Below are positions 24,252 through 41,458 of a stretch of 64,000 bases of DNA, piece after piece. Positions within the stretch are counted from its first letter, which is position 1, and every line of letters starts with the position of its first letter. The DNA comes from an uncultured Coriobacteriia bacterium. GTDB lineage: Bacteria; Actinomycetota; Coriobacteriia; Anaerosomatales; PHET01. A model generated the notes under the pieces. That model was not told the DNA's origin and ran no database searches. It saw only the letters and a list, made by a program, of their open reading frames with translations. Made by a program: the position numbers and the translations under genes. The stretch lies in NCBI GenBank assembly GCA_963751505.1, contig CAVVUM010000013.1, positions 4,053-68,052 on the forward strand. The letters are read 5' to 3'.

Positions 24252-25697
24252 CTACAGAAGCCGCGACGTGAGCCGAGCCAGCGCGTTGTTGAAGCGGCGC
24301 ACGCGACCGAAGCTTTGGTAGTACTCCTCGACAATGTCGTGGCACGACGCTACGTCGGCGTCGAAGATCGCGTCCTGCTCCGCTGCCACGCCCGCGTCGT
24401 AGAAGAACAAGCTGATCTCGTCGTGCAGCGCGAAGCTGCGCACGTCGAAGTTCGTCGTGCCGACGACCGCAAGTTCACCATCGACCGTCATGGCCTTGGC
24501 ATGGAAGAAGCCCGCGTCGTAGTGGAGCATCCGGCCACCAGACTCGACGAGTTCGTCGATGTAGGAGAAGGCCGCGTTCCACGCGATCTTCTTGTCGGGT
24601 ACGCCGGTCATCATGAACTGCACGTCAACACCGGCAAGTGCCTGGGTGCAGAGCGCCTCCAAGATCGCCTCGTCCGGCACGAAGTACGGCGACTGGACGC
24701 GCACCGTCGAGTCCGCCGAGAGGATCGTGAGCAGAAACGCATTGCGGATCGCCGGCCATCTCGTCTCGGGACCCGAGTACGCGATCTGGCTCCACACGAC
24801 GCGACCGCCATCGTCGATCCCGAGCTCGGGGAAGTAGCGCTCGGTGAAGAGCCGTTCTTGCGTACGACGGAACCACAGGCTACAGAAGACGCGCTGCAGG
24901 TCGGCGACGAGTGGGCCCGTGAAGCGCACGTGCGTATCGCGCCAGGACTCGTAGCGTGGCTTCCCGTCGATGTACTCCTGGCCCATGTTCATGCCGCCGG
25001 TGTAGGCGATCTTCCCGTCGATGACCGCCATCTTGATGTGGTTGCGATAGTTCAGCCTGCTGAGGTGGTGGACGTCCGCACGCACCTGTGCGCCCGAACG
25101 CTCGAGCAACTTCAGCTGTGACTTGCGGTAGGGCAGCGAGCCCACCCAGTCGTAGAGCACGCGCACCTCGACGCCCGCGCGCGCCTTCTCGGCGAGCAGG
25201 TCGCAGAATCGCCCCGTCAGCTCGTCGCTCTCCCAGATGAAGTACTCGAGGTGGACGGAGTCCGTCGCAGCCTCGATGTCGGCGAACAGCCGCGGGAACT
25301 TCTCGGCGCCCTTCGCGAAGATCTCGAGGCCGGTGCAGGGCAGCAATCGCGTGCCGTTCTGGCTCTCGATCGCCGAGGCGATCCGCCTGGCGAACCCGGG
25401 GCGCTGGGCAAGAACGGCCTCCGCCTCGTCAGCCCAGCGCGCGTATATCGGAGAGACTGCGTCGATACCGAGCTGAATCGCTTCGAGGCGCCGGGCGTCG
25501 CGCTTGCCGATCGCCCGCCAGTTGCGGCCGAACAGCAGGTAGAAGACGAGGCCAAGACCGGGCACGAGCAGGAGGAACAGCGCCCACGCAAGGGTCGTGG
25601 ACGGGTCGCGCTCCTCGTAGATGAGGAGCACGATCACGAACAGGGCATACACGGGAACGGCGACCGCAACGAGCGTTCCGATGAGTGTCTCAGCCAT
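24252..25697 (-). CDS. cls: Cardiolipin synthase
   Basis: N-terminal PLDc_N TM pair and two HKD motifs ([18 protein letters not shown]). Confidence 0.95.
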
Positions 25698-25784
25698 GCT
25701 CGCGGAGTCTACAGGAGTACCTCGACGCGCTCACGCGCGGCAGCCGATGACGCAGCCAGCGGGCACTCCCCCTATACTGCGCAC

Positions 25785-27000
25785 ATGACATTCTCCCAAC
25801 TCGGCCTGTCCGAGCAGATCCTCACGGCGGTCTCCGCCCTTGGCTACGAAGAGCCCACCCCGATCCAGGCGGAGGCGATTCCGCTGGTGCTGGCAGGTCG
25901 CGATGTCGTGGCGGCGGCCCAGACCGGCACCGGAAAGACCGCGGCGTTCGCGCTGCCGCTCATGCAACGAATCGGCCGTGGCACCGGCGCCCCCCTCGCA
26001 CTCGTCGTGACCCCGACCCGCGAGCTCGCCGCACAGATCGAGCGCGTCGCCTCTGCGGTCGCCGAGCACACCGACCAGCGCATCGCCGCGGTGGTGGGCG
26101 GCGTCGAAGTACGGGCCGCAGGTCGGCCGCGTCAAGGCCGGCGTCGAGGTGCTCGTCGCGACCCCGGGCCGCCTCATCGACCTCACGGAGCGGGGCGACG
26201 TGGACCTCAGCAAGATCGAGATCCTCGTGCTCGACGAGGCCGACCGGATGCTCGACATGGGCTTCTGGCCGAGCGTGCGCAAGATCCTCGGCTTCCTGCC
26301 CAAGGAGCGTCAGAACCTGCTGTTCTCGGCGACGCTCACCGAGGAGATCACGCAGATCGTCGGCCGCATGCTGCACGACCCGGCGTACGTGGAGATCGCA
26401 CGGAGGGGCACGACCGCAGACCTCGTCGAACAGGCGGTGCTGCCGGTCGAGCAGTCCCAGAAGCCCGACTTGCTCGCCGCGCTCATCCGGCAGCGTGGCG
26501 CCGACCGCGTCTTGGTCTTCACCAAGACCAAGAGCCGCGCCGACCTCGTCAAGACGATCCTCGAGAAGGACGGCTTCAACGTGGCGGTCATGCACGCCGA
26601 CCGCAGCCAGGAGCAGCGGGACAAGGCACTGAAGCGCTTCCGAGAGGGTAAGGTCGACGTGCTCGTGGCGACCGACATCATCGCCCGCGGCATCGACATC
26701 ACCGATATCGACCACGTCGTCAACTACGACGTGCCCGAGAATCCCGAGGACTACGTCCATCGCATCGGGCGCACCGCGCGCGCAGGCGCGAGCGGCTACG
26801 CCCTCACCCTACTCGGCCCCGACGAGATGTCGCAGTTCCGCGAGATCGAGTACCTGCTCGGCGAGCACGTGCCGACCCTCGACATAGAGGGGTTCGAGTA
26901 CCGGGAGGGCCGCATCGTCCCCTACGCCGGCCGACCGGTGAAGAAGAAGAGCCACAGCGTGTTCGGCGGTCGCGTGACGCGGCGCAGCCGGCGGCGCTAG
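25785..27000 (+). CDS. DEAD-box RNA helicase (RhlE-like), frameshifted near 26107
   Basis: Q motif [35 protein letters not shown] and HRIGRTAR. Confidence 0.95.
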
Positions 27001-28784: not shown

Positions 28785-29759
28785 ATGAGACGAGAGGACG
28801 GCCGGTGATCAGGCGAGCTGGACTTCGCAGCAGCGGATCGCCGCGGTCGATTCGGCGGCGGGCGTCGCCGGCGCGGTCGAGACGCTCGTCATGAACATCG
28901 GCCGCCGCTGCGAGATCGCCTGCGGGCACTGCCATCACCGCTGTTCGCCTGACGCGGCCGAAGAGATGTCGGGCTCCACCATGGAGCGCTCGCTCTCGCT
29001 GGCCGAACGCTCGGAGTGGGACTCATCGACGTCACCGGCGGCTCTCCCGAACTCTGGCCGCACCTGCCCGATCTGCTCGGCCAGGCACGTGCGGCGGGCA
29101 TCGACGTGCGGCTTCGCAGCAACTTGGTCGAGCTCAGCGACGATCGATCTCATACGTTGGCTGAGCTCATGGCGACGAACGCGCACGGCGGTCCTCGCCT
29201 CGGTACCCGCGGCCGGGCTCGACGGTGACTCGAGATGGCGCCCCGACCAGTGCTCGAAGCCGCGACGGCGCTCAACGGCTCGTCGCCTTCGGCTACGGCA
29301 GTCGAGCACGGGCCGCAACTGGAGTTCGCCGTCAATCCCGAGTCGGGGCTTCCCGAAGCCGAGTCGACGATCGCCGACGGTCTCGGGAGTTCGATGGCGG
29401 CGCTAGGAATCACGCGCTTCCGCGTGCGCTCGATCGCGAACGCCCCGCTCGGCCGGTTCGCGGACCGGCTCGCCGCTCAGGGCGGCGGGCGGGCGTACCT
29501 GCGCACCCTCGCCGACGCGTTCAGCGCGACATCGGTGGCGAGCCTGCCGTGTCGCAGGGGCATCACGATCGCCTGGGACGGCAGGCTCTACGACTGCGAC
29601 TTCAATCTGGGCGCGGGACTGCCTCTTGCCGACGGCCCGTCCACCCTCGATCAGGCGCTCGCGCGACCGGATCAGCTGGCGGGTCGGCGCATCAGCTTCG
29701 GCACCCACTGCTTCGCATGCACGATCGGAGCGGGCTCAGGTTGAGACGGCGCGGCGTGA
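28785..29759 (+). CDS. arsS: ArsS-type radical SAM / DUF3641 protein, probable selenoprotein (UGA at 29742), frameshifted
   Basis: ETLVMNIGRRCEIACGHCH, IDVTGGSPEL, RSNL, LPCR, WDGRLYDCDFN and HCFACTIGAGSG-U-DGAA. Start approximate. Confidence 0.8.
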
Positions 29760-29773
29760 CCCGGTCGGGTCGC
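29756..29773 (+). promoter_or_regulatory. Bacterial SECIS-like hairpin
   Basis: GUGACCC-GGUC-GGGUCGC stem-loop beginning 11 nt after the in-frame UGA at 29742-29744. Confidence 0.65.
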
Positions 29774-31141
29774 AACGGATCGGCGCACGCCATCATGCTG
29801 GTGCGCCACCCCCGTCTCGGCGAGGTGAAGACGCGCATCGGCGCTTCGCTCGGCGATCAGGCGGCACTGGACCTTCACGTGCGACTCGCGCGCCACACGC
29901 TGAACGCCATGCTGGCGCTGCGTGCCTGTCGAGAGGCCACGGTCGAGGTGCGTACCGACGCGTCGTTCGTGCACGCCACCCGCGAGGTGTTCGGCCGCGG
30001 GCCCCACTACCGTTACCAAGGTGAGGGCGACCTCGGTGACCGGATCAGACTCGCCTTGGCCGAGGCGTTCCGGCGCGGGGAAGACCGTGTGATCGTGGTC
30101 GGCTCGGACTGCCCGCGCCTCGGCGCGGGTCACCTCCGCGCCGCCCTGGCCGGACTCGAGACCAGCGATGTCGTCATCGGGCCGGCCGCGGACGGCGGCT
30201 ACTACCTCATCGGTGCCCGGCGTCAGGCCGCGAACCGCGTCCTGGCCGCGCTGTTCGCGCAGATGCCTTGGGGTACGTCGGACGTCTTCACCGAGACCGT
30301 GCACCGCGCGCAGGCCGCGGGGCTTGGCATCGTCGAACTGGAGACCCTGCCCGACGTGGACCTCCCGGAGGACCTGAGCGACGCCGAGGCGGTCCTCGCC
30401 GCAGAGGAGACCGCCGACGCAGTAGTCTCGGTCGTGATCCCGACCTTGGACGAGGAGACCACCGTCGCCGAGGCTGTCCGTTGCGCGATCGCGGGCGGGG
30501 CGGGCGAGGTGATCGTCGCAGACGGGGGCTCGCACGACCGCACCGTCGAGATCGCCGAAGGCGCGGGCGCTCACGTCGTCGTCGCGAGGCCGGGCCGGGC
30601 ACGCCAGCTGAACGAAGGCGCTGCGCACGCCACCGGCGGCGTGCTGTGCTTCCTTCACGCCGATACGCGGCTGCCGGCGGGCTTCGCAGCCAGCGTTCGG
30701 GCGGCCCTCGCTCCCCCTCACGCGGTGGCATGCGCCTTCGACTTCGCGGTCGAGCACGGCGGTTGGCGGCACCGGCTGATCGGGGACCTGGGCCAGCTGC
30801 GCTGGCGCCTCGGCGGACTCCCGTACGGCGACCAGGCGTTGTGTGCGCCACGCTGGGTGTTCGACGCTCTCGGCGGGTACGCCGATCTGCCGACCATGGA
30901 GGACTACGACCTGGCGCAGCGGCTGCGGCGCTACGGACGTATCACTCGCACGCGGCAGCCGGCGATCACCTCGGCTCGGGTGTGGGACGAACACGGCCTG
31001 CTGCGCCCTACCCTCGTGAACGGTGCGGTCATCGTCGGCTTCCGGCTTGGAGCAGACCCGGCGAGGCTCGCGCGATGGCGCACCGCCATCGGTAGGCGGG
31101 CATCCGGCACGGCGCACGCTGGAGAGGGGCGGCCAACGTGA
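29756..31141 (+). CDS. Fused DUF2064 (TIGR04282-type) and GT2 (TIGR04283-type) glycosyltransferase, ArsS-associated
   Basis: N half: GEVKTR, QGEGDLGDR, GSDCP, GPAADGGYYLIG, DVD. C half: VSVVIPTLDE, DGGSHDRT, GRARQLNEGA, FLHADT, YGDQ, MED, TSAR. Confidence 0.88.
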   Translation: MTRSGRNGSAHAIMLVRHPRLGEVKTRIGASLGDQAALDLHVRLARHTLNAMLALRACREATVEVRTDASFVHATREVFGRGPHYRYQGEGDLGDRIRLALAEAFRRGEDRVIVVGSDCPRLGAGHLRAALAGLETSDVVIGPAADGGYYLIGARRQAANRVLAALFAQMPWGTSDVFTETVHRAQAAGLGIVELETLPDVDLPEDLSDAEAVLAAEETADAVVSVVIPTLDEETTVAEAVRCAIAGGAGEVIVADGGSHDRTVEIAEGAGAHVVVARPGRARQLNEGAAHATGGVLCFLHADTRLPAGFAASVRAALAPPHAVACAFDFAVEHGGWRHRLIGDLGQLRWRLGGLPYGDQALCAPRWVFDALGGYADLPTMEDYDLAQRLRRYGRITRTRQPAITSARVWDEHGLLRPTLVNGAVIVGFRLGADPARLARWRTAIGRRASGTAHAGEGRPT

Positions 31142-31899
31142 CAGCACACGCGCTGCCATCGACACCCGCACCGCTCGCCGCGGCGCTCCTGTCCGAGCTC
31201 GAGCAGCGCGCGGACCCTGACAACGTCGCGGGGATGGCGCGCTTCGGCATCAGCAGCGTGGGCACGCTCGGGGTCACGGTGGCCGCCGTCCGCGAGCTCG
31301 CGCGCGACGGGAAGCGCGCGCTCGGGCGTGACCCTTCGGCACATCACGAGCTGGCCGCGCTCCTGTGGGCGAGCGGCGTGCACGAGGCACGCATCATGGC
31401 TGCGGTCGTCGACGTCCCGGAGCTCGTCACCTATGAGCAGGCGGAGTCTTGGGCGCTCGACCTAGACTCCTGGGACACGTGCGATCAGCTGTGCGGCAAC
31501 CTGCTGTGGCGCGTTGGCTTCGCGTGGGATCTCCCGGGCGCGTGGGCCGCTCGCACCGAGACGTTCGTCAAACGTGCCGGTTTCGTGGTCGCCACTCAGC
31601 TCGCCGTGAAGGACAAGCGCGCCGAGGACGAGCGCTTCCTGCCGCTGCTCGAACTGGTCGAGCAGGAGGCGGCCGACGAGCGCAACGACGTGAAGAAGGG
31701 CGTGAACTGGGCGCTCCGCCAGATCGGCAAGCGCAGCTCCGGACTCAACGCGGCCGCAGTGGCGTGCGGTGAGCGGATCCTCGCGCAGGCGCCCCCGCGC
31801 GGGGGAACACCCGCAGAAGCCGCCGCCCGCTGGGTCGCGCGCGATGCGCTTCGCGAGTTGCGCAGCGATGCGGTTCGCAGGCGACTGGGGATCGACTGA
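31138..31899 (+). CDS. DNA alkylation repair protein (AlkD-like HEAT repeat)
   Basis: MARFGI, LWASGVHEARIMA, DSWDTCD, FVKRAG and DERNDVKKGVNWALRQIGKR. Confidence 0.88.
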   Translation: MTAHALPSTPAPLAAALLSELEQRADPDNVAGMARFGISSVGTLGVTVAAVRELARDGKRALGRDPSAHHELAALLWASGVHEARIMAAVVDVPELVTYEQAESWALDLDSWDTCDQLCGNLLWRVGFAWDLPGAWAARTETFVKRAGFVVATQLAVKDKRAEDERFLPLLELVEQEAADERNDVKKGVNWALRQIGKRSSGLNAAAVACGERILAQAPPRGGTPAEAAARWVARDALRELRSDAVRRRLGID

Positions 31900-31910: not shown

Positions 31911-34426
31911 CTACTCGTAGTGCAGAGCAGCGACGATGTCGAGCCGCGCGGCCGAGCGCGAAGGGATGATCGCTGCGAGCAGCGCGAAGGTGAAGCCTGC
32001 GATCACCGCCGTGACGATGCCCGCCCAGGGGAAGAAGTACGGCATCACGAAACCGGTGGCGTTCATCGCGTACACGAGCGCGTAGCCGAGGGCGACACCC
32101 CCCGAGACACCGAAGAGGACGCCGACGGCCGCGAGCAACAGCGCCTCGGCAACGACCATGCCTCGGATCTGCCTGCGCGTCGCGCCCACCGCTCGCAGCA
32201 TGCCGATCTCCCGCGTGCGCGAGAGCACGCTGATGGCGAGCGTGTTGAGCAGCGCCAGGAGCGTCGGCAACGCGAGCATCGCGATGAAGGTGTAGAAGAT
32301 GCCGAGCGTCTGGGAGAACAGCACCGACTGGGTGTCTTTGAACGACTGCGAGTCGTAGAGGATGAACTGCGGGTAGTTGGCGAACAAGCGCTCGAGGCGC
32401 GCCTTCACCTGCGGAATCGACGCTCCAGGCTCGGCGTTGGCAAGCACCATCGCGTTCGCGGTCACGCCGAAGTCGGCCTCGAGGTTGTCCTGCGAGATGT
32501 AGCCGGTCGCAAGCTTCGCGTTCAGGTAGTCGGTGGCGATCCCGACCACCTTGTAGCTCTTCATGCCGTTGGGCGTCTCCATCGACAGCCTCTGACCGGG
32601 CTTCACGCCGTTCTGCGCGGCATAGATCCCATTGACCATCATCGTGCGGCCGGTACCCAGCTTGGCCAGATCCTCCTGGGCCGTGTCCCCCGAGTAGGTG
32701 AACGACGCCACCTTGGGATAGGTAGCCGGGTCGATGCCCACGAGCTGCAGTTGGCCGCCGTTCACGCTCCCCATGCCGAGGCGCATCGTCGCAACCGTGG
32801 AGATGCCCGGCGTGGAGGCGACCTCGTCGACGAGGTCCTGGCTCGCGCCGATATGACTGCCGCCCATGAGCAGGCCCTGCGGAATCGTGACGAAGTCACT
32901 GCCGAGCGACTTGTCGATGTAGTCGAAGAAGCCGGCGTAGATCGAGGCGATCAGACCCACCATCGAGACGACGACCGCAAGCGAGACAAGGATGGCCGAG
33001 GCGGTCGCAGCGGCGCGTCCGGGCTGGCGCGTGAGGTTCGAGTTGGCGAGATCGGCGGTAACCGGTGAGATCGGCTCGATGATCTTGGAGAGCAGCTTCG
33101 ACAGCGGCTCGATGAGCGCGGGGGCGATCAAGATGAGCCCCACGAGGAAGAAGACCGCGCCCAGACCCACCGTCGTTGACTGCCGCGTGAGCAGCAGCGG
33201 TATCGAGATGCCGAGCGTCACCCAGCCGACGATGACCGCCTTGCGGTGGCCGCGCTCCGCGACCTCGGCGACTTGCGGACGCAGCGCCTCGATCGGCGTG
33301 ATGCGAGCGGCCTGTCGTGCCGGGATGATCGCTCCGAGCACGGTAACGCCCACGCCGAGCACGAGCGCGGCGATCCACGTCCCGAGCGTGAACTGCGGCT
33401 GTACCGGCCCAAGATCCATGTTGAGTGTGTTTGTCCAGATCGGCGCCATCGCCGCGATCCCCGCCGCGGCAAGCAGGTAGCCGAAGAAGAGCCCCAAGGC
33501 CGTGCCAAGCACGCCCTGCATCACGCTCTGTGCGAGGAAGATACCGAGGATCGTGCGCCGGTCCGCGCCGATCGCCCTCAGCATGCCGATATCGTGACGG
33601 CGCTCCGAGACGAGCGTGCGGAAGGTGTTGAGGATGATGAAGCCGCCCATGATGAGGGCGAACACGCCGAACATCGTGAATGCAAAGCGGCTGATCTTCA
33701 GCGCCGCAAGAAGCTGGTTCTCGGTGGAGAGTCCGCCGACCGTGAAGTCGCTTCCCACGGTACGGCGCACGACCGCCTCGACGGTCGCGCGGTCCGAGCC
33801 CGGCGTCAGGCGGCCCTCGACCGCGTTGGCTTTGCCGGTCACGCCAAGCATGCGCCCCGCGGTCGGTAGCGTGACATAGACCTCGGGCGAGCCAGGCGTC
33901 GATCCGCTGCTGAGCAGCCCGACGATCGTGAGTCGCTGTGTTCCCGAGACCGTCGGCACCTCGAGATGCCCGCCGACGCCGGTTCTGAACTTGTCGGCAG
34001 TGTCCTGACCGATCACCGCGGAGTTGCCGTCCCCGGCGGCGAGCATGCGCCCTGCCGCGATCGGGAACTCCCTGACTCGCATCGCGGTGCGCGGCTGGAT
34101 GCCGACGAGCGTCACCACGCTTTCGGGGCTATCGGTGGGCATGCCCACCGGCCGGCGCAGCAGTGGCGTGGCTGCTGCGACTCCCTCGACCTTGGCGACC
34201 TCCTCGGCGACTGCAGGATCGAAAGAGCCGCCGCTCGCCCCTGTGACCGAGAGATCCACCTGCCCTGCGGCGCCGAGCAGCACCCGGTTGAATGCGTCAA
34301 TCATGCCCGGCAGCATGCCGTTAAGGCCGAAGATGATCGCGACGCCGAACACCACCGCGAGCGTCGTGAGCAGCGTCCGGAGCTTGCGGCCCCACAGGTA
34401 GCGCCAGCCAAGTGTGATCGAGACGT

Positions 34427-34430
<4 letters not shown>
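31911..34430 (-). CDS. ABC transporter permease, duplicated MacB-PCD/FtsX type
   Basis: RTLLTTLAVVFGV, ERRHDIGMLRAIGA, RTREIGMLRAVGA and AARLDIVAALHYE. GTG overlaps the stop of the ATPase gene. Confidence 0.92.
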
Positions 34431-35164
<734 letters not shown>

Positions 35165-38828: not shown

Positions 38829-41458
38829 GTGGGGAAGCTCGAGGAGTATCGGCGGAAGCGCGACTTCGGCACGACCCCCGAGCCGGCGGGCGAGCCGACG
38901 CCGTCGGCGGGCGGAGGTCGGCTCTCCTACGTCATCCAGAAGCACGCAGCTTCGCGCTTGCACTACGACTTTCGCATCGAGCTCGACGGCGTACTGCTCT
39001 CCTGGGCGGTGCCGAAGGGCCCGTCGCTCGACACCGCCGACAAACGGCTCGCGATGCACGTCGAAGACCACCCGATCGAGTACGGCTCGTTCGAGGGCGT
39101 GATTCCCGCGGGCGAGTACGGCGGTGGCACGGTGATGCTCTGGGACCGCGGTTCGTGGGAGCCCGACCATGGCGACCCGCGCGAACACCTTGCGCAAGGC
39201 CATCTCAAGTTCTACCTCTACGGCGAGCGGCTGCGCGGGCGCTGGATGCTTGTGAAGACCAAGGGGTACGGCGGCAAGAGCGCTGACAGCTGGCTGCTGT
39301 TCAAGGAGCGTGATGACGAGGTCCGGGGCAAGGCGGAGTTCGACGCCGCTGCCGAGTGGACGACAAGCGTGGCGACCGGCCGCACGATGGACGAGATCGC
39401 CGCCGACATCGAGGCGGTCTGGCACTCTGACGCGAGCGTGGAAGACAACGTCACCGCAACGCACGGCCTCGTGGGCGCTTCCGCCGAGGAAGCGGACGGC
39501 GGGTACCCGTCAGCGATCGCCCCACGCGTCGCGGAACTCGCCGGCGCGATCGCCGCGCCGATGCCCCACGCGATCGACGTCGAGCTGGCGAGCTTGGTCG
39601 AGGGCGTGCCCGACGGCGACCGATGGCTGCACGAGATCAAGCTCGACGGCTACCGGATGATCGCCTTTCTCGACCACGGAGCGGTGCGGCTGGTAAGCCG
39701 TTCGGGGCACGACTGGACCGAGCGGTTCGGGACCATCGCGGCTGGTGCGGCGGCGCTTGGCGCAGAGCAGGCGATCCTCGACGGTGAGGTCGTGGTACTG
39801 CGCGACGACGGGACGAGCGACTTCCAGGCGCTGCAGAACCACGCGCGGCGCGGCCAGGAGGCCCGCCTCCATTTCGCTGTGTTCGATCTGCTGTACCTCA
39901 ACGGTCACGACCTGCGCGGGGTGGCACTCGAGGACCGCAAGCGGTTGCTCGCGACGCTCCTACCCCGTCACACCGACGTGCTGCGCTGCGTGGACCACGT
40001 CGTGGGCCACGGCGACACCTTCCTCTCGCACGCCTGCGCGCTCGAGCTGGAGGGCGCCGTCTCGAAGCGCCGCGACGCGCCATACCGCTCCGGCCGGGGG
40101 CGCGACTGGGTCAAGACCAAGTGCCTCAAGCGCCAGGAGTTCGTCGTCCTCGGCTACACCGAGCCCCAGGGCGCTCGCACGGACTTCGGCGCGCTGCTGC
40201 TCGGCGTGCACGACGAGGGCGGGCAGTTGCGCTACGCCGGGCGCGTCGGCACCGGCTTCACCGACACCACCCTGCGCGACCTCGGCACGTTGTTGCGCGA
40301 GGGCGAATCCGCCACGCCGCCGATTCACCCTGTGCCCGACGACGTGCGCGGTCTCGCCGTGCATTGGGTGGACCCGAAGCTCGTCGCCGAGGTGCGCTTC
40401 GCCGAGTGGACCGCCGAGGGTGCGCTACGCCACCCTTCCTTCCTCGGCCTGCGTGAGGACAAGCCCGCCGAAGACGTCGTGGCCGAGAAGGCCACCCCAG
40501 CGCCCGCGCCCGAGCCGGCGGCCCCCGCCACGGCGGCTGCCGGATCCGCGCCGGTCGTCGCCGGGGTGCGGCTCACCAACCCCGACCGCGTCTTCTGGCC
40601 GGAAGCCTCGTTCACCAAGCTCGACCTCGTCCGCTACCTCGAGGCCGTGGCCGAGCCGATGCTCGCGCAGGTCGCCGATCGCCCGCTTTCGCTCGTGCGC
40701 TGTCCCTCGGGGTATACCGGGGAGTGCTTCTACCAAAAACACGTCGAGAACTTCCCGGGCTCGGTCGGCACGGTCGATGTCCTCGAGCCGCGCGAAGGCA
40801 CGACCATGCCCTACGCGGTAGCGAAAGACCTCGCCGGCCTGGTCGGGCTCGCCCAGATGGGGGTGCTCGAGATCCACCCCTGGGGTTCGCGCGCCGATGA
40901 GCATCGAGCGACCCGATCGTATCGTCTTCGACCTGGATCCCGGACGAGGGGATCGCATTTCGAACGGTCTCGGGCACCGCGCTCCTGCTGCGCAGCGAGC
41001 TACGCCGCCTGGGCCTCGAGTCGTGGGTGAAGACGACCGGAGGCAAGGGACTTCACGTGGTCGCCCCCGTGACGCGCAGGCACACGTGGGCCGAGGTCCA
41101 CGACTTCTCGCGCGCCTTCGTCGATTCCATCGTCGCGCTCGAGCCCGGCCTGTTCACCGCGAGCATGAGCAAAGCGGCGCGCGGCGGCAAGATCTTCATC
41201 GACTACGTGCGCAACGCGCGCGGAGCGACCGCCGTCGCAGCCTACTCGACGCGGGCCCGGCCGGGCGTGCCGGTATCCGCGCCGCTGTCCTGGGACGAAC
41301 TGGGGTCCGCAGCCGAGATGCCGGTGTTCTCGGCGAGGACGATGCCCGCCCGGCTCGCTGAGCTCGGCCAAGACCCGTGGGCCGACCTGGCGGGGACGCG
41401 GCAGTCGATCACGGTCGCCATGCGCCGACGGCTCGGGCTTCAGTCGCCCAAGCAGTAG
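38829..41458 (+). CDS. ligD: DNA ligase D (phosphoesterase-ligase-polymerase), frameshifted near 40900-40960
   Basis: YRRKRDF, HYDFR, EIKLDGYR, EGAVSKR, WVKTK, LTNPDRV, FYQKH, VFDLDPG, KTTGGKGLHV and IFIDYVRN. Confidence 0.95.

Follow-up and report, generated by a model that had tools for sequence, protein, structure and literature searches.

The window, the whole stretch of 64,000 nucleotides that was analysed, carries an arsS gene on the forward strand at about 28867 to 29756, which lies in at least five frame pieces in the assembly. Downstream of arsS are a gene encoding a fused glycosyltransferase and a gene of the DNA_alkylation family. The features of the locus are as follows.

28867..29006, + strand: arsS piece 1, the N-terminal radical SAM part with the CxxxCxxC motif CEIACGHC (28909-28932); frame 1; TIGR04167 positions 6-51, E 1.7e-10.
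29007..29185, + strand: arsS piece 2, carrying ...LIDVTGGSPELWP...; frame 0; TIGR04167 positions 55-108; reached only via a frameshift at ~29006-29018.
29186..29303, + strand: arsS pieces 3 and 4, with approximate boundaries; frame 1, then frame 2; placed by aligning the ArsS proteins of four relatives with frameshifts allowed.
29304..29741, + strand: arsS piece 5, the DUF3641 or Cys-rich C-terminal domain, ending ...HCFACTIGAGSG; frame 0; Pfam PF12345; TIGR04167 positions 156-302.
29742..29744, + strand: UGA predicted to be read as selenocysteine (Sec), aligned with the invariant Cys/Sec column.
29745..29756, + strand: four tail codons after Sec, GAC GGC GCG GCG (D-G-A-A); relatives have U-x-G-x-L-L or similar, and Cys forms C-G-G-A-L-x and then a stop.
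29757..29759, + strand: TGA taken as the true arsS stop, within the 5' arm of the hairpin.
29756..29773, + strand: SECIS-type hairpin GUGACCC-GGUC-GGGUCGC with a 7-bp stem and a GGUC loop, conserved in TGA forms only.
29756..31141, + strand: fused TIGR04282 + TIGR04283 arsenosugar-type glycosyltransferase; its GTG start overlaps the arsS stop, and an alternative in-frame ATG lies at 29795-29797.
31138..31899, + strand: DNA_alkylation-family gene, following the glycosyltransferase ORF.

TIGR04167 (rSAM_SeCys) bears the NCBIfam name 'arsenosugar biosynthesis radical SAM (seleno)protein ArsS'. ArsS is described, in the available text of PMC13598754, as a radical SAM enzyme that adenosylates dimethylarsenite to DDMAA in arsenosugar synthesis. 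The window gene shares with this family the CxxxCxxC motif, the Cys-rich C-terminal domain, the tail HCxxCTxGxGSxU and a neighbourhood of TIGR04282/TIGR04283 glycosyltransferases. Its C-terminal piece matches PF12345 (DUF3641) with 102.3 bits (cut-off 24.9; E 2.8e-29) and has the invariant columns C83, D97-C98-D99, H135-C136, C139 and C/U147, and the TIGR04167 profile aligns through the TGA, up to position 302 of 303. Since the gene is split over frames, the TIGR04167 scores were obtained by piece (40.6, 34.5 and 106.2 bits), and, unlike an ArsS in one frame, the copy in the window cannot reach the whole-protein cut-off of 300 bits. TGA-type relatives with an intact arsS score 214-304 bits on the same profile, the stop being counted against them. 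We identify the window gene as ArsS and predict from its family that the product adenosylates dimethylarsenite. The first ATG, GTG or TTG in the arsS frame of the window is the ATG at 28891, and a start there would cut into the conserved N-terminus. We saw no arsM between 18 and 41 kb of the window, in a genome that is 59% complete.

At the 3' end of arsS, the letters CAC TGC TTC GCA TGC ACG ATC GGA GCG GGC TCA GGT (...HCFACTIGAGSG) precede a first TGA at 29742-29744. Four codons separate it from a second TGA at 29757-29759, also on the forward strand, which is overlapped by a GTG (29756-29758) to give GTGA. The distance from the UGA to the stem is exactly 11 nt (29745-29755), and the G and U of the loop are nt 23 and 24 when numbered from the U of the UGA. 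These TGA positions, the GTGA coupling and the 7-bp hairpin with its GGUC loop 11 nt downstream had been described in an earlier note on this DNA, and the description is exact in the window sequence. A short-read contig of a related strain (run X4, record 27) differs from window positions 29723-29873 at two letters (29815 and 29866) with no gaps and equals the window at every letter of 29723-29814, including both TGAs and the hairpin, indicating that the four-codon spacing is not an assembly error.

To learn about the position of the first TGA in homologues, we compared ArsS across relatives. A TIGR04167 profile search in 40 genomes related at the level of family or order gave an ArsS-grade match in 19, among which 16 contain exactly one in-frame TGA and three have Cys and no internal stop. 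Protein alignment demonstrated that the TGA falls on the invariant Cys column of HCxxC-T-x-G-x-G-S-[SG]-[C/U], and the pairing of Cys and TGA at the terminal Cys position of ArsS/DUF3641 proteins, as the earlier note had proposed, is thereby seen in the homologues. A wider set of 80 loci from many phyla has Cys in 74 and TGA in four, while the motif search missed two; all four TGA loci come from MAGs labelled Actinobacteria or Coriobacteriia and have the same hairpin. Together, the window, the 16 relatives and the four named MAGs form the TGA-type set of 21 loci; these relatives are kin, and the counts given for them are descriptive, with no statistical test attached.

The tail after the TGA runs for 4 or 5 codons to an in-frame stop, except in L034 and L036, where it has 15; four residues follow Sec in the window as against five in most relatives. 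The tail pattern x-G-x-L-L of the TGA forms resembles the C-G-G-A-L-x of the Cys forms. In these GC-rich genomes the true stop is also TGA in 21 of 21 TGA-type loci, and for this reason the constant use of TGA at the Sec column is weak evidence when taken alone. An arrangement in which close homologues end with TAA or TAG and the hairpin is not conserved was not encountered: the codon is TGA throughout the set and the hairpin is kept.

The genome (13 contigs, 1.28 Mb, 59% complete) encodes the machinery for selenocysteine. A tRNA-Sec was detected with 72.6 bits in Rfam and was called tRNA-SeC with anticodon tca by ARAGORN; selB, selA and selD each score over the curated cut-off, and the four genes lie within ~10 kb on contig C8 (C8:3643-14020; loci L001, L009, L017-L020). 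All of selA, selB, selC and selD, on whose presence the selenocysteine reading depended, are thus found together. The selD gene contains an in-frame TGA of its own (...SKAG-U-AAKW...) followed by a strong 9-bp hairpin with a GGA loop, and SelD is probably a selenoprotein in this genome too; the sequence of its hairpin differs from that of arsS. Among the relatives, selA was found in 38 of 40, including 16 of 16 TGA-type genomes, with a weak match in G035 (157 bits, two TGA inside). The one near-complete genome in which no selA was found is G025 (99% complete), and its ArsS is the Cys form, so that Sec may have been replaced by Cys together with loss of the Sec trait there. Cys-type ArsS occurs in three relatives of the same order, G025, G020 and G024 (loci L022-L024).

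Folding of the 18-mer alone gave -11 kcal/mol (z = -2.77; 1 of 200 shuffles as good). Within a 49-nt context of DNA with 68% G+C the fold is unexceptional (z = +0.44; 129 of 200 shuffles as good); fold energy is thus weak evidence and the case rests on comparison. The 1.28-Mb genome contains a single copy of the 14-nt core GACCCGGTCGGGTC. Three sites differ from it by one mismatch, none of them preceded by a nearby TGA, and no other selenoprotein gene with the same hairpin was found in the genome. A scan of 29650-29850 against Rfam, with E up to 10, returned no SECIS family and only two sRNA matches at chance level, and a promoter and terminator scan detected neither a terminator-like site nor a T-run terminator.

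Alignment of the 21 TGA-type loci (A2) showed that columns 27-44 are nearly invariant and the flanks variable. The 7-pair stem is paired in 91.0% of 144 cells, as compared to 30-42% when the 3' partners are slid. Changes on both sides were seen at two of the seven stem pairs, that is, compensatory changes in some copies; pair 28-43 is U-G in 11 rows and U-A in six, a switch more in keeping with a stem in the RNA than with a palindrome in the DNA, and six of the 21 rows have no pairing at 30-41. Because the hairpin sequence is highly conserved, covariation is thin, and the shuffle control was moderately exceeded (22 of 500 shuffles reach the percent paired and 72 of 500 the covariation score). 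Four loci (L025, L029, L034 and L036) are off-register in this gap-free comparison and fold at that place into hairpins of different stem sequence. No such hairpin is seen in the three Cys forms from the same order. Most relatives have 14 nt between UGA and stem, as against 11 nt in the window. L034 and L036 have the hairpin ~14 nt from the UGA, inside the longer ArsS tail, with the stop/start 15 codons after the UGA and 3' of the hairpin. This arrangement indicates that hairpin and gene junction are separable and that the place of the hairpin is tied to the UGA, not to the junction. The stem of these two hairpins is of the GCCCC/GGGGC type and the loop is shorter.

The ORF that follows arsS exceeds the cut-offs of both glycosyltransferase families, with 177.2 bits against 134 for TIGR04282 and 214 against 182 for TIGR04283; the E-values of the two matches are 1.9e-63 and 2.8e-52. 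TIGR04282 (DUF2064) and TIGR04283 (GT2) are fused here in a single ORF of 461 amino acids, unlike the family neighbourhood to which they belong. A second GTGA overlap (31138-31141) joins this ORF to the DNA_alkylation-family gene. This overlap suggests that arsS, the glycosyltransferase and the alkylation-repair-like gene constitute one tightly coupled operon.

That the second TGA is the true stop and overlaps the next start, as had been suggested from the window alone, agrees with the TGA-type set: a start codon overlaps the true stop in 20 of the 21 loci (GTG in 19, ATG in one), and in 19 of the 21 the frame of the overlapped start is open into the N-terminal motif of the glycosyltransferase. 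Of the 21 loci, 17 retain the arrangement in which the stem contains stop and start, a count that leaves out L034 and L036 from the 19 in-frame loci. A competing reading, which we regard as possible and yet the less probable, is that the glycosyltransferase starts at the conserved ATG at 29795-29797 and that the GTG in the hairpin is incidental to a conserved stem sequence. This reading gains from the ATG found exactly at the start of the motif [IV]-M-[LT]-T-R-[FY]-P in 15 of the 19 in-frame loci (in the window at 29795, 13 codons downstream) and from the TIGR04282 profile, whose match starts at residue 13 when the protein is counted from the GTG. It is opposed by the linkers between overlapped start and motif, which vary in length (9, 10, 11, 12, 13, 14, 16, 17 and 22 codons) and yet keep the frame and contain no stop in 19 of 21 loci, these loci being related and not 19 independent trials. 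Moreover, the overlapped start is the only ATG, GTG or TTG ahead of the motif in L031, L052 and L053, and in L038 the first G of the stem is changed to A, which breaks the pair yet keeps a start codon (ATGA). We favour the overlapping start; the conserved ATG at 29795 may be an alternative, an additional or the main start of the downstream gene.

The arsS frame is broken at least four times upstream of 29304 (~29006-29018, ~29175-29190, ~29215-29269 and ~29303-29309), the last three shifts each being +1. The earlier note did not mention these frameshifts. Frameshift-aware alignment to the ArsS of L038, L034 and L031 needs all four, and with L032 one shift runs through a poorly matched stretch. 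Frame changes are found in other genes as well: rpoB lies in three frames and rpoC in four (contig C5:76194-83438), corresponding to two and three frame changes; a DEAD-box helicase and LigD lie in two frames each (window 25251-27000 and 38829-41458); and selA, selB and selD are frame-split in this genome, with selA intact in relatives. We checked the shifts against contigs of related strains from four runs, which are distinct from the source reads and each share only 0.05-0.08 of words. An extra C was detected behind 29006 in X4 record 23, where a frame-restoring base is needed, and X1 record 1, by reading of a loose contig end, is likewise one letter longer at 29006. These contigs cover only the first of the four frameshift sites, with no usable cover at 29087-29293. 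In X1 and X4, three single bases of the window are also missing at 28795-28831, on the 5' side of the radical SAM motif (net 3 nt). From 29303 on, no net frame-changing indel is present in any covering contig, and one X3 contig has a self-cancelling pair of indels at 29318 and 29324.

The split rpoB and rpoC, together with the extra C at 29006 in a related strain, make assembly indel errors likelier than a pseudogene, and we consider local assembly error the most likely cause of the arsS frameshifts. An unlikely alternative is that arsS is a pseudogene in this organism, in which the Sec codon and the SECIS are kept as a relic and the indels at 28795-28831 and ~29006-29309 are real. The four frameshifts are packed in about 300 nt, three further single-base indels against related strains lie at 28795-28831, and the neighbouring ORFs are intact (29756-31140, 31138-31899 and 31911-34583, so that the next 4.8 kb after arsS hold long intact ORFs), all of which gives the breaks a locally dense appearance that would suit decay. 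The split of the essential genes rpoB and rpoC, and of selA, selB, selD, the DEAD-box helicase and LigD, indicates on the other hand that indel errors are general. Furthermore, the final 440 nt of arsS show no indel against the related contigs, with TGA, tail and hairpin letter-perfect, and neutral decay is not expected to spare the 3' half of the gene. The assembly is rich in single-base indel errors, and calls of a 'broken gene' in this genome are doubtful without read-level confirmation.

ArsS is already a catalogued selenoprotein family, and the copy in the window is a correct and fairly ordinary case. TIGR04167 appears in tables of selenoprotein families as 'Radical SAM domain protein' with the motif GxxU, in the parts available of PMC13188914 and PMC9312934, and the G-S-G-U of the window fits this motif. 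The same family stands under 'Predicted' in the table of one of these reviews (PMC9312934), and the available text of a 2007 paper counts 'Radical SAM domain protein' among the known selenoprotein families (PMC1976440). The claim that some ArsS proteins are selenoproteins therefore holds, by the NCBIfam name and the two review tables, while the description of this Sec as hidden does not, as it is already catalogued. What is mildly new is only the conserved overlap of SECIS, stop and start. At the level of titles and abstracts, searches returned no paper devoted to Sec-containing ArsS, and none of the matches listed names a SECIS that overlaps a downstream start codon.

The E. coli SECIS element works in an untranslated position, and to our knowledge a bulged U is not required in the SECIS elements of all bacteria. 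The upper stem-loop of E. coli fdhF, as presented in the available part of a review (PMC8659212), lies 11 nt from the UGA, and its key bases are U17, G23 and U24. The fdhF-like spacing of 11 nt, which the earlier note had pointed out together with a loop containing G and U, and the positions of these two bases match this description. Compared with fdhF as described there, the window element likewise has a stem-loop that starts 11 nt after the UGA, G23 and U24 in the apical loop and a length of ~17-18 nt. Unlike it, the window stem has seven uninterrupted pairs and no bulged U17, most arsS relatives are spaced 14 nt and not 11, and the window element lies outside the selenoprotein coding sequence, with the stop in the 5' arm and the remainder in the next gene. 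Another parallel is SaoC, which, according to the accessible text of the report (Haft, bioRxiv 10.1101/2022.07.06.499078), has a C-terminal Sec with a SECIS hairpin behind the stop codon. On that account the two share a Sec at or near the C-terminus, a 7-bp stem with a G-containing loop, a hairpin at or after the stop and a start of the next gene closely behind. The SaoC hairpin, in contrast, sits in the spacer before the next RBS, whereas in the window the stem itself contains the stop and the next start, and the protein families are unrelated.

Taken together, the TGA at 29742-29744 is very probably the Sec codon of ArsS, decoded by means of a hairpin that also holds stop and start, in a gene whose upstream frameshifts are most likely assembly indel errors. 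We infer SelB binding, Sec insertion and use of the GUG on the basis of the sequence, the genes for Sec machinery, the column shared by Cys and UGA, the conserved hairpin and overlap, and a frame that stays open into the next gene. While the UGA occupies the A site of the ribosome, the hairpin (29756-29773) would stand at the mRNA entrance, its start 11 nt downstream and its loop presenting G23 and U24, and would recruit SelB with Sec-tRNA(Sec). Sec would be inserted and the D-G-A-A codons read; the ribosome would then melt the hairpin and terminate at the UGA at 29757-29759 in the 5' arm, and the GUG of GUGA would start the fused glycosyltransferase gene. As the stop lies in the 5' arm and is overlapped by the GUG, the same stretch of 18 nt would act as SECIS, stop and start.

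We regard it as highly improbable that the TGA is a plain stop, with ArsS ending ...GAGSG at 29744 and the hairpin acting as a terminator, an attenuator, a regulator's DNA palindrome or a coupling element of the next gene: TGA is a common stop in these GC-rich genomes, the hairpin covers the start of the next gene and could act there alone, and its fold in context is unremarkable, but the TGA takes the place of an invariant Cys, the codons after it resemble the tails of the Cys forms and run without exception to an in-frame stop, the TIGR04167 profile runs on through it, the hairpin accompanies TGA forms and is absent from the same-order Cys forms, there is no T-run, the U-G pairs in 11 of 21 rows are unlike a DNA palindrome, and in L034 and L036 the hairpin stays near the UGA though the stop/start lies farther downstream. 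Within the Sec reading, the overlap might further constitute a selenium-dependent translational coupling, in which the start is locked in a stem held by SelB and is opened only by a Sec-inserting ribosome, with re-initiation at the GUG. We put this forward as a speculative extension, which we consider unlikely.

The consequences for annotation are direct: gene callers would end the ArsS of the window at ...GSG, losing Sec and four residues, and would also call arsS broken owing to the assembly indel errors. For the family, these results add a whole actinobacterial order in which ArsS is mostly of the predicted Sec form (16 of the 19 found). As ArsS handles trivalent arsenic, a selenol in its tail would be chemically suggestive. 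The near-invariant SECIS shared by these loci offers a clean RNA target for studying SelB recognition in Actinobacteria, and the stop and next start inside its stem make it a compact case of one RNA element with three jobs. If the coupling is true, synthesis of the glycosyltransferase would be tied to Sec insertion into ArsS, and thus to selenium supply, and it is only then that the overlap would be of real interest.
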